DNA from: Candidatus Peregrinibacteria bacterium
GTDB taxonomy: Bacteria; Patescibacteriota; Gracilibacteria; UBA1369; JABINC01
NCBI GenBank assembly: GCA_018697675.1
Contig: JABINC010000075.1
Span: 7,496-71,495, forward strand
Direction of reading: 5' to 3'
DNA length: 64,000 nucleotides
Below are positions 2,761-7,522 of the stretch, piece after piece. A program made the translations under genes and the position numbers. Each line of letters opens with the position of its first letter. Within the stretch, counting starts at the first letter, position 1. The notes under the pieces were generated by a model. The model saw only the letters and a list, made by a program, of their open reading frames with translations. It searched no databases and was not told where the DNA came from.

Positions 2761-3570
2761 CTATTCTAAGATTTCTAAGACCTCTCCAGTTAATGAAACT
2801 TTTGCTTTTATCGTATTCATAATTAATCCTCCAAAAGCATTTTTACCTCTAAATGTTGTTTCAACAACTATGTGACCATTCATGTTCCAGTATGAGGTTT
2901 TTACATGTTCGTAACTTCCAGGGTCATTCATGGACTCTTTTATTGAGCGAGTTAGTTTAATGTGTGACCCATCCCATGCACTAAATTGAGCTTCAATTAA
3001 TTCTTTCCGCTTTTCTTTTTCAGCGATTGCGAGAGTCAAAGTTCTTATCTCAGTATTATTCTCAAGCTTATTTATGAAGCGTTGGTTTAATTCTGTATTT
3101 TGAAAATAAGTTGTTGTTAACTCTTTCTTGTTAAGAAGTTCAAAGTCACTATCTGACATCTCTACTAATGTTCGTTCTAGAAACTCTTCAGATTGGAAGT
3201 TTAAAATTTCATTCTCTAAAGCAAATGCTGGATTGGTGCTTTTAGAAGAATTGAGTATTTCAGATTGATCCAAAGCAGTTAATGCTTCATTGAGCTTGTC
3301 TTCAGAAATATAGCTTTGAGCTTGCGTTACAAGGCTCGTAGCCTCTTCTCTTCTTTCATTTGACCCAATGCTACCTGAAAATAAAATAATGGCACACAAG
3401 AGAGTAATAGCTATTTTTACCCATTTATTCCATTTTGTTTTTGTCCATACGAGATATGGTACGGTGATTGGGAATAAAGATATGACCAAAAGGATTCCCC
3501 ACCATTTTTTATACCAAGGTTTTGAAGTAGTTTGTGTGTGTTCCATATTTTTCAGGTTAAGTTTTAACAA
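2761..3570 (-). CDS. Membrane-anchored protein with coiled-coil region and conserved C-terminal globular domain
   Basis: 269 aa. Two N-terminal hydrophobic helices (WWGILLVISLFPITVPYLVW, VKIAITLLCAIILFSG). C-terminal FSAWDGSH...NDPGSYEH...FRGKNAFGG domain. True start may be the internal ATG (MEHTQ) at 3544-3546. Confidence 0.6.
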   Translation of the reverse strand: MLKLNLKNMEHTQTTSKPWYKKWWGILLVISLFPITVPYLVWTKTKWNKWVKIAITLLCAIILFSGSIGSNERREEATSLVTQAQSYISEDKLNEALTALDQSEILNSSKSTNPAFALENEILNFQSEEFLERTLVEMSDSDFELLNKKELTTTYFQNTELNQRFINKLENNTEIRTLTLAIAEKEKRKELIEAQFSAWDGSHIKLTRSIKESMNDPGSYEHVKTSYWNMNGHIVVETTFRGKNAFGGLIMNTIKAKVSLTGEVLEILE

Positions 3571-3574
3571 AAAG

Positions 3575-3709
3575 GGGCTACGAGGTCGCCCACAATCACT
3601 TGCTCACTAGGAGTAGCCGATATGGCTCGTAGCCCGTCTCTACCCATATCGGGGTACAGAAACGGACAGTTTCCCTAGTGAAAAAAACTATGATTGTGTG
3701 CGACAATCA
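3575..3709 (-). ncRNA. Candidate structured cis-regulatory leader / ncRNA (nested stems plus pseudoknot to the start region of the 2761..3570 gene)
   Basis: Hand pairing gives four stems. S1: 3585-3598 with 3691-3704 (13/14 bp). S2: 3604-3611 with 3674-3681 (8 bp). S3: 3617-3625 with 3644-3652 (9 bp). S4: 3659-3663 with 3669-3673. The S3 loop (3626-3635) is perfectly complementary (10 nt) to 3575-3584, next to the start codon. A competing hairpin exists at 3691-3709. Confidence 0.4.
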
Positions 3710-3743
3710 GATACTACAAAAAAGCCTTTATAACAGCAAGTAA

Positions 3744-4931
3744 TTATCTATTTTCAAGATAAACTTCTAAGTTAAAGTCATCATCTTTAGGTACAAATTC
3801 TTCTAGGATGTATATATTGAGCATAACTCTTGCTAAAATGAATGCTTCTAGAAATGAGCATGGCATGAGATTAGGGTACCAATCTTGGTTAAACCGGTTA
3901 TGTGGATGAACGTAATCAGTTCTTTCATCATAGCATTCTTTTAGCCAAGTTGCGTAAGGGCATCCAAAGTTTTTTATTAACAAGTCGTCCAAATCTGCAA
4001 TTTTTTCTAATTCATATTTTTCCATTAAAAGTTTCGTGACACCATCTAGGCAGAAACACAGTAATGCATTAGCTTCTTCATGTAGAATTAGATGGTTTTT
4101 GAAGGCGCATGCCTTTGTATAGTAATACAGGCACCTCATTAGTACTCCGTTTGAAGTGTCAATTTTCTTCATTAGTTTTTCACATCTATCTTCTTCATCC
4201 TTTGCTAGTTTATTTGTGCAAAACTTTCCTTTTGAACCTTCCGAATGAAAGATCGAAATTTTATTTAGGAGAGTTATAGTTTTTTTAATTTCTTTTACTG
4301 TGTTTTGATCTAGCTCTTTCGAATTAAGATCGTAAAAATCTGCATTAAGGTAGTACTCGTTATCTCCTATGAAAAAGTTGTACTCTCCTTCATCTCTTGC
4401 AAGATTTAGAGCGGAGATCAGCTTTATTGATGACTTTTGCATCCTACAAAGACCTCCATCAGCATCCTCTTCGTCTATCATACCAAAGAATGATCTTTTA
4501 CCAGCTGTAAGTAAGTAGGGCACTCCGTTATTTACAATAAATGCACTTTTTGTTGTTATAAATTCTTTTTGTGGAATCGTGCTAGTGCCAAAGCTTGAGA
4601 ACGATTCTAAGGTATTTATAAGCACTCCCAATTTTTTACTACTCGATAATTTCTTTGATCTTTTTACTTTGATCTTATTCCAAGCTTCGTTAAATTTTTG
4701 ACGTATATCCCCTTGTTTACTTCTATCATTTTCGACATCATCAAGAAAGTTATCAAACATTAATCTTTGAATATTCTTGTCTTTGTTTCGGATAATTTTT
4801 TTCATTATCCCATCTTCTATCTTAAAGTGTTTGCCCGCTAGAATATACCTTTCATCAAGGGCTTTGATAATGTCTTTTTTGTTTTTTAGACTCTCTATTT
4901 TCTCGACTAATTTATAAAGCTCTTCTTTCAT
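3744..4931 (-). CDS. Hypothetical protein with C-terminal Rx4H (HEPN-like) motif
   Basis: 395-aa ORF. Helical C-terminal region contains ERTDYVH (nt 3906-3923), matching the Rx4-6H HEPN signature. No other family motif recognised. Confidence 0.55.
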   Translation of the reverse strand: MKEELYKLVEKIESLKNKKDIIKALDERYILAGKHFKIEDGIMKKIIRNKDKNIQRLMFDNFLDDVENDRSKQGDIRQKFNEAWNKIKVKRSKKLSSSKKLGVLINTLESFSSFGTSTIPQKEFITTKSAFIVNNGVPYLLTAGKRSFFGMIDEEDADGGLCRMQKSSIKLISALNLARDEGEYNFFIGDNEYYLNADFYDLNSKELDQNTVKEIKKTITLLNKISIFHSEGSKGKFCTNKLAKDEEDRCEKLMKKIDTSNGVLMRCLYYYTKACAFKNHLILHEEANALLCFCLDGVTKLLMEKYELEKIADLDDLLIKNFGCPYATWLKECYDERTDYVHPHNRFNQDWYPNLMPCSFLEAFILARVMLNIYILEEFVPKDDDFNLEVYLENR

Positions 4932-6216: not shown

Positions 6217-6245
6217 TTGATATTTTCATTCGATTGTCTTATATT
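6217..6245 (+). promoter_or_regulatory. Sigma70-like promoter of RNA module copy 1
   Basis: TTGATA (6217-6222), 17-nt spacer, TATATT (6240-6245). The conserved block starts 7 nt downstream, at A6252. Confidence 0.5.
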
Positions 6246-6251
6246 AAATCT

Positions 6252-6380
6252 ACTTCGGGTGTACCCCTCCAGTACTTTTGGGATTTGGAAAGGTGCCCTC
6301 AAAACATCGGCTTTTATAAGCCAAAAGCAGTTACCTTTTTAGCACTTCTAGACATGGTAAATATAGGGGGCAGTTTTTTT
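6252..6380 (+). ncRNA. RNA-like module copy 1 (no tRNA-like end)
   Basis: 6252-6360 is 107/109 identical to 7376-7484. It is followed by ATAGGGGGCAG plus a T-run. ACCCCT at the 5' side can pair with AGGGG(G) near 6364-6369. No credible ORF or SD. Confidence 0.4.
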
Positions 6381-7340: not shown

Positions 7341-7369
7341 TTGTATAAAAGGTTTTGAATTGGTATACT
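7341..7369 (+). promoter_or_regulatory. Extended -10 promoter of RNA module copy 2
   Basis: TTGTAT (7341-7346), 17-nt spacer including TGG, TATACT (7364-7369), i.e. TGGTATACT. The conserved block starts 7 nt downstream, at A7376. Confidence 0.5.
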
Positions 7370-7375
7370 TTATTT

Positions 7376-7522
7376 ACCTCGGGTGTACCCCTCCAGTACT
7401 TTTGGGATTTGGAAAGGTGCCCTCAAAACATCGGCTTTTATAAGCCAAAAGCAGTTACCTTTTTAGCACTTCTATACATGGTAAGGGTGGGGTCTCGGGT
7501 TCGACTCCCGAAGGTGGCTCCA
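7376..7522 (+). ncRNA. RNA-like module copy 2 ending in a tRNA-like T-arm + CCA (reduced tmRNA-like or tRNA-like RNA; identity unresolved)
   Basis: T-arm TCGGG-TTCGACT-CCCGA (7495-7511), then AGGTGGC-T-CCA (7512-7522). Closing helix ACCCCTCC (7387-7394) with GGGTGGGGT (7485-7493). Internal GGGATTTGG..AAGGTGC recalls the tmRNA helix-2 region. There is no canonical GGGG acceptor and no convincing tag ORF. Confidence 0.4.

Follow-up and report, generated by a model that had tools for sequence, protein, structure and literature searches.

Purine riboswitches are terminator-type leaders built on a three-way junction with a loop-loop contact. The lambdoid PR'-tR' short transcript and the put RNA of HK022 are promoter-proximal RNAs of mobile elements that govern termination; leaders of this kind are simple hairpins or depend on the Q or N protein, and put suppresses terminators located downstream of it, while containing none itself. 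Members of the candidate phyla radiation are not culturable and make little or no use of Shine-Dalgarno pairing; to our knowledge, almost no regulatory RNAs have been described in them.

The stretch of DNA analyzed here (the window, 64,000 nt) contains a gap of 173 nt between the minus-strand ORFs 3744-4931 and 2761-3570, which had been predicted to fold as a densely paired, switch-like leader. The minus strand from 3704 to 3569 is one copy of a family of structured leader RNAs of approximately 135 nt, found in Peregrinibacteria/Gracilibacteria. In its main outline the original prediction was sound: this is a genuine pseudoknotted, densely paired 5' leader on the minus strand, with the stems S1, S2 and S3 and the pseudoknot (PK) backed by covariation or by permutation of partners. 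The parts of the RNA and its surroundings, in the direction of transcription, are as follows.

3734-3739, minus strand: -35 box TTGCTG (in the homologue profile T, T, and G or T are enriched at -35 to -33 from the first nucleotide of P0; spacer of 17 nt)
3711-3716, minus strand: -10 box TAGTAT (TAnnnT at -12 to -7 from the first nucleotide of P0 in 38 of 40 members)
3704, minus strand: predicted transcription start, a G, first nucleotide of P0 (from promoter geometry)
3691-3704, minus strand: 5' strand of P0 (S1), pairing with 3585-3598
3683-3690, minus strand: J0/1, U-rich strand of an asymmetric internal loop, UAGUUUUU (in every member, 6-23 nt)
3673-3682, minus strand: 5' strand of P1 (S2 lengthened to 10 bp), pairing with 3603-3612
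3658-3667, minus strand: 5' strand of Pa, GUCCGUUUCU, pairing with 3632-3641; its first 4 nt are the base of the putative antiterminator
3644-3652, minus strand: 5' strand of S3, CCGAUAUGG, at the tip of hairpin Pa; complement of the Pb loop region in 33 of 33 sequences
3632-3641, minus strand: 3' strand of Pa, AGAGACGGGC; its last 4 nt are common to PK and show three-way covariation
3626-3635, minus strand: 5' strand of PK, GGGCUACGAG, spanning the 3'-terminal 4 nt of Pa, the whole of Jab (a 4-nt junction) and 2 nt at the start of Pb
3615-3627, minus strand: hairpin Pb, AGCC-AUAUC-GGCU, the most sequence-invariant block (GCC and GGC nearly invariant)
3617-3625, minus strand: 3' strand of S3, consisting of the Pb loop and its flanks
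3603-3612, minus strand: 3' strand of P1 (from alignment covariation)
3585-3598, minus strand: 3' strand of P0, preceded by a conserved CAA(G) at 3599-3602
3575-3584, minus strand: 3' strand of PK, CUCGUAGCCC, predicted terminator stem, pairing with 3626-3635
3569-3573, minus strand: U-tract UUUUU, directly 3' of PK (at least 4 U in the tail of 33 of 33 aligned members)
3547-3568, minus strand: short A/U-rich 5' UTR with TTAACC at 3555-3560 (TAAC is the ordinary initiation motif of this lineage)
2761-3546, minus strand: downstream gene, encoding a 261-aa membrane protein from ATG 3546 (from homologue N-termini)

Like the purine riboswitches, this RNA lies in a 5' UTR, its helix P1 closes a three-way junction whose arms touch through complementary loops, one of its pairings is exclusive with a predicted intrinsic terminator, and it would act on the gene immediately downstream. 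It differs from them in having no match in Rfam, in carrying an extra outer helix, P0, that would extend from the transcription start, and in drawing the 5' strand of the putative terminator from within the junction (Pa base, Jab and Pb) and not from the 3' strand of P1, so that the terminator would be a pseudoknot; furthermore, its junction nucleotides are unconserved, its downstream genes are diverse and its loop-loop contact is 8-10 bp long. With the lambdoid PR'-tR' unit it would share a layout in which a constitutive promoter leads into a short RNA and a decision on termination, upstream of accessory or late genes that belong to an integrative element; about a third of the copies studied here are near integrases, whereas many others are not. 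Flavivirus exoribonuclease-resistant RNAs likewise combine a three-way junction with a pseudoknot to the 3' flank and are compact around a 5' end, but their strand topology is different; the present RNA is bacterial, its 5' end is defined by a promoter, and a U-tract comes next.

Fold and conservation of the leader

The minus strand has a minimum free energy of -61.3 kcal/mol, as compared with -44.6 ± 4.1 kcal/mol for shuffled sequences (z = -4.1, with 0 of 200 shuffles as good); thus, the dense pairing first recognized by hand goes beyond chance. Since the plus strand also folds well, folding energy alone cannot tell the strand. The helices contain 135 G.U against 15 A.C combinations, and therefore the structure exists as RNA, on the strand of the gene. 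All the pairings initially described are present in the window: S1 (3691-3704/3585-3598), S2 (3674-3681/3604-3611), S3 (3644-3652/3617-3625), S4 (3669-3673/3659-3663), the 10-nt complement 3626-3635/3575-3584 and the GATTGT/ACAATC hairpin. The homologues each fold individually to one common plan, which consists of an outer P0, an asymmetric A/U-rich internal loop, P1, and a three-way junction with a long Pa and a short Pb. The element is single-copy in its host genome (1.46 Mb), which rules out a genomic repeat or MITE.

Conservation was studied with an Infernal alignment of 33 sequences, started from a hand-segmented, N-padded seed (MAFFT alone misaligned the 5' half). For P0, P1 and Pa 90.8% of the paired cells hold pairs (69.5% when shuffled) and the covariation score is 0.621 (0.24 when shuffled, 0.09-0.13 with slid partners), figures that lean towards these helices because the alignment was fitted to them. 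Over the 33 sequences the outer 10 pairs of P0 are 95.4% paired, with compensatory changes in 9 of 10, and P1 is 96.4% paired, with compensatory changes in 9 of 9 pairs. Compensatory changes are found in 7 of the 10 pairs of Pa, whose lower 7 pairs are conserved (for example, columns 81/117 are AU in 15 and GC in 15 sequences). PK is not part of the covariance model behind the alignment; all 10 of its pairs are 97-100% paired in the 33 sequences, and 8 of them show compensatory changes (one column pair is AU in 10, GC in 10, CG in 9 and UA in 2). Overall, S1, S2 and PK are 95-100% paired in the relatives and show covariation, a check that had been called for.

The tip of Pa and the loop region of Pb can form 8-10 bp in 33 of 33 sequences, with a mean duplex energy of -12.0 kcal/mol, as compared with -7.1 ± 0.4 kcal/mol for permuted partners (0 of 2000), across 22 distinct loop sequences. 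S4 fared differently: no conservation of this stem was found in the alignment (47% paired, as compared with 42.6% in shuffles), and its place is taken by the conserved 10-bp stem Pa (3658-3667/3632-3641), which overlaps it. The junction strands J1a and Jab vary in sequence; J0/1 is A/U-rich in the members and its sequence is not conserved. Most of the conserved bases belong to Pb, to the GGG/CCC runs, to CAA or to UGGG. Pa is much reduced in the distant variants L167 and L175. These two divergent members (L175:910-1031 and L167:1720-1843, in metagenome contigs) precede genes for large serine recombinases by 4-6 nt.

Promoter, predicted terminator and start codon

A -10 box is located exactly 6 nt before P0 in 38 of 40 copies, a pyrimidine occupies position -1 in all 40, and a TTG/TTT -35 element appears in the homologue profile 17 nt upstream of the -10 box. 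Because a box of the sigma-70 type sits exactly at this distance, the RNA probably starts at P0, near G3704. At the other end of the RNA, the 3' strand of PK abuts the 3' strand of P0 without a gap in 30 of 33 scored copies (the exceptions being one copy with a 1-nt gap and two copies that were placed by hand), and PK is always followed by 4-6 U. The duplex energy of PK is -18.4 kcal/mol in the window copy (family mean -17.4 kcal/mol). Since it abuts P0 and always precedes a U-tract, PK is best read as a terminator stem and not as a mask over the start codon, and together with the U-tract it is shaped like an intrinsic terminator in 33 of 33 aligned copies. Like a canonical intrinsic terminator, it is a stable, G+C-rich helix of 10 bp and about -17 kcal/mol with the U-tract directly after it; unlike one, it is not a simple short-loop hairpin, as about 40 nt separate its strands and it crosses both P0 and P1. 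A standard terminator scan (loop of 3-8 nt) does not report it.

The annotated start of the downstream gene, TTG at 3568-3570, is inside the U-tract. Homologous proteins start with M..T..KPWYKKWW, in line with ATG 3546, and across the family the ATG ORF begins at a nearly constant distance, mostly 16-20 nt past the U-tract. In this genome GGAGG is found upstream of only 0.6% of 668 long ORFs; before the same ORFs TAAC/TTAAC peaks at -16 to -12, a position that TTAACC (3560-3555) fits. TTAACC was considered as a component of the element and rejected, as it is a genome-wide initiation motif. Judging from these sequence comparisons (homologue N-termini, spacing and the TAAC motif), the true start is ATG 3546 rather than TTG 3570, and the protein has 261 rather than 269 residues. 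The original prediction took TTG 3570 as the start and proposed that the pseudoknot could mask the initiation region; because the start appears to be ATG 3546, with TTG 3570 within the U-tract and PK resembling a terminator, PK would not mask initiation. The missing Shine-Dalgarno sites would explain why every member might use termination and not the masking of a ribosome-binding site.

Family membership and downstream genes

A BLASTN search of 60 related genomes returned three homologues belonging to other families. With a small covariance model covering the 3' half, 33 copies were then identified in 29 of the 205 genomes of the order, in 11 families; the full-length model, R2, recovered all 33 at full length (30-110 bits) and added three from the order and four from different orders of the same class. 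When 401 genomes sampled from the phylum were searched with R2, no match fell outside the class; the genomes of other classes covered number about 380. Among the matches listed in a metagenome scan, 4 of 80 loci were real, which added at least four members; phage-borne copies were sought in IMG/VR with one pattern, and of its 23 hits 0 passed the model. In total, more than 40 copies are distributed patchily in about 35 Peregrinibacteria/Gracilibacteria genomes. With Rfam 15 at gathering scores the window gives only two tRNAs; the region 3450-3850 at E ≤ 10 gives only two chance hits elsewhere, and twenty homologue loci at E ≤ 1 give nothing. The initial impression that the architecture belongs to no recognized riboswitch or ribozyme class therefore holds in Rfam for the window and for the 20 homologue loci, and a description of the element was not found in the literature. 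It is well supported that this is a previously uncatalogued family of RNAs; in function it would belong to a known kind, and the geometry of its predicted terminator is unusual.

At 43 of 43 loci a same-strand ORF begins 4-45 nt past the U-tract. Its product has an N-terminal hydrophobic segment, indicative of a membrane or secreted protein, in 32 of the 43 cases, as compared with a background of 29% among the ORFs of at least 150 aa in this genome (p about 1e-9, calculated for loci that are not independent). SLH-domain proteins are directly downstream in 6 loci and Zn-ribbon/TM/OB-fold proteins in 7; the other products include lipoproteins, small membrane proteins, four DNA methylases, two large serine recombinases and an Ogg-like protein. 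These genes are functionally diverse, the cell envelope being their sole common theme, and no coherent regulon pointing to a ligand was found among the downstream genes. The 261-aa protein of the window has a hydrophobic segment near residue 44 and matches no Pfam family. A search for the element upstream of homologues of this protein (the FSAWDGSH family) had been suggested; the RNA is present at only 2 of 20 loci that encode them, and the closest homologues have a plain promoter upstream.

A tyrosine recombinase is found within 5 kb of 13 of 41 copies, as compared with about 2.5% expected, and is usually paired, as in the window; many copies are far from any integrase. Where one complete genome carries two copies, their identity reaches 90% or more only over the stretch between about -40 and the start codon, so that promoter, leader and short UTR behave as a portable cassette. 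The leader probably sets the amount of transcription that reaches genes mostly of the cell envelope, often on mobile islands.

Some features of these islands recur. Two adjacent tyrosine recombinase genes 1-5 kb from the RNA (1-1816 in the window) form a mobile-element layout also seen at G166:C11, G067:C11, G076:C1, G129:C56, G063:C1, G072:C15, G036:C1, G052:C40 and G079:C2, and the 206-aa protein encoded at 1907-2527 of the window is also beside the RNA in G052 and G129. In G134, G198 and G079 (loci L037, L039 and L040) the gene that follows the RNA encodes a type III-like DNA methylase (PF01555), and a conserved divergent gene lies about 150 nt upstream of the RNA. In the interval that separates the membrane-protein gene from the 206-aa ORF, the window also carries three tandem direct repeats of 36-37 nt (2605-2713). 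Further along is a direct repeat of 121 nt, 95% identical (6240-6360 and 7364-7484), on both sides of a methyltransferase gene.

As in riboswitches, a conserved structured domain in the 5' UTR is combined with mutually exclusive pairings. A c-di-GMP riboswitch (I/II) is excluded because many complete carrier genomes are without GGDEF enzymes: this genome has no GGDEF, and neither have 18 further carriers, four of them single-contig. The presence of GGDEF in 16 of 35 RNA carriers and in 18 of 30 non-carriers shows no correlation, and GEMM has no Rfam match in the window or in 20 homologues. A T-box leader was rejected as well, as there is no Rfam T-box match in the window region or the 20 homologue loci and no aminoacyl-tRNA-related gene downstream.

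Competing pairings and alternative readings

PK has six nucleotides in common with Pa and Pb, and because of this PK on one side, and the Pa base with Pb on the other, are mutually exclusive. Though conserved, the Pa base is weak and has many G.U pairs (-2.6 kcal/mol); the energies of Pb and PK are -4.0 and -17.4 kcal/mol. In a few lineages the shared nucleotides covary with both partners (C-G-C, A-U-A and U-A-U triplets), the three-way covariation amounting to few events only. Such a pattern is characteristic of a bistable element with PK as its thermodynamic default; on pairing energies alone, the default state would be 'terminate'. Mutually exclusive pairings had been foreseen, and they exist; the contest that is conserved, though, is between PK and the Pa base with Pb, not between S1 and a local hairpin. 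The latter is specific to the window, with no counterpart in the homologues, and its arm 3705-3708 is upstream of the predicted transcription start.

On balance, we think it more likely than not that the element is a cis-acting, default-off transcription attenuator. It would be a self-contained unit of sigma-70-type promoter, structured leader of about 135 nt and terminator, with the gene starting about 20 nt after. The RNA would begin at the first base of P0, and P0 and P1 would close the three-way junction bearing Pa and Pb, with the complementary tips of the two arms paired in S3. The last 10 nt, once made, would pair with GGGN, with Jab and with the 2 nt that begin Pb; the resulting 10-bp, G+C-rich PK would stack end-to-end on P0, the U-tract would follow, and RNA polymerase would stop. 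To form, PK would have to displace the weak, G.U-rich Pa base together with some of Pb. As PK crosses both P0 and P1, the P0-P1 rod would also have to fold back at a U-rich hinge; J0/1, a long variable strand opposite the conserved CAA, fits the role of hinge or spacer. Given this displacement and folding back, anything that stabilizes the junction state would allow read-through, candidates being a protein, an ion, a metabolite or temperature. A classical metabolite pocket is made less likely by the variable junction strands and by the diversity of the genes. The invariance of the Pb hairpin is a hint of a protein or tertiary partner.

Speaking against an attenuator are the structured 'loop' of about 40 nt within the terminator helix, which crosses P0 and P1 and is missed by a standard scan, the variable sequence of J1a and Jab, which offers no obvious pocket for a small molecule, the diversity of the downstream genes, unlike the situation in classical metabolite riboswitches, the small number of three-way covariation events, the much reduced Pa of L167 and L175, and the fact that the terminator is as conserved as the remaining RNA, which fits a stand-alone RNA too. 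We advance more tentatively, as a possibility that we would not expect to hold, that the family is a new class of sensory leaders (orphan riboswitch or protein-responsive attenuator) restricted to Peregrinibacteria/Gracilibacteria, in which a long-range pseudoknot terminator stacked on its own 5'-terminal helix holds envelope, restriction-modification and recombinase island cargo off until a signal locks the junction. If so, the signal might have to do with the host, or with the cell envelope, of these bacteria with their small genomes.

It is unlikely, in our estimate, that the RNA of about 135 nt instead works alone in trans, as a small RNA that binds a protein or another RNA, possibly on behalf of a mobile element, with PK as a constitutive terminator and the downstream gene served by leakage or unlinked. 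Promoter and terminator are complete in every copy, the terminator helix is conserved like the core, the invariant Pb sequence suggests sequence-specific recognition, PK is far stabler than its competitors, and the distribution is patchy with an enrichment near integrases, all as such an RNA would have it; however, the same-strand ORF that follows within 45 nt at every locus leaves no room for a second promoter, the conserved cassette reaches the start codon, and the Pa-base pairing that competes with PK is conserved too. Next in order, and also improbable, is a constitutive, non-switching 5' UTR module, whose 5' end, buried in the P0/PK stack, would stabilize or insulate the mRNA, or which would fix a low level of read-through for portable cassettes. 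A 5' nucleotide at the P0/PK junction, a portable cassette before unrelated genes and the apparent lack of a conserved ligand pocket are in its favor. A stabilizer, however, needs no U-tract, and the U-tract is there in all 33 aligned copies; the conserved alternative pairing and the many G.U pairs of the Pa base are signs of a built-in metastability, and 135 nt with five covarying helices seem elaborate for a fixed attenuator. A feature at the DNA level or of chance origin (a recombination site, a single-strand origin, a fortuitous palindrome) would suit the mobile-island location and the good folding of both strands in isolation, but is effectively refuted by the strand-specific G.U excess (which also speaks against an attC-like site), the fixed promoter and U-tract, the covariation over 33 sequences and the many copies distant from integrases.

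The cis-acting attenuator is thus the reading that we carry forward. The new family, with its five covarying helices, more than 40 members, promoter-defined 5' end and a predicted pseudoknot terminator stem abutting the 5' helix, provides a handle on the control of surface proteins and mobile-island cargo in Peregrinibacteria/Gracilibacteria, and offers a new terminator/antiterminator geometry for study in vitro; its covariance model is ready for use in genome annotation. If the RNA does sense a ligand, it would constitute a new riboswitch class.

As a separate observation, the GATTGT/ACAATC hairpin at 3692-3708, with seven U at 3681-3687, is located 36 nt past the stop codon of the gene upstream (395 aa), and for the upstream operon it could act as a weak terminator that overlaps the promoter and the start of the leader.
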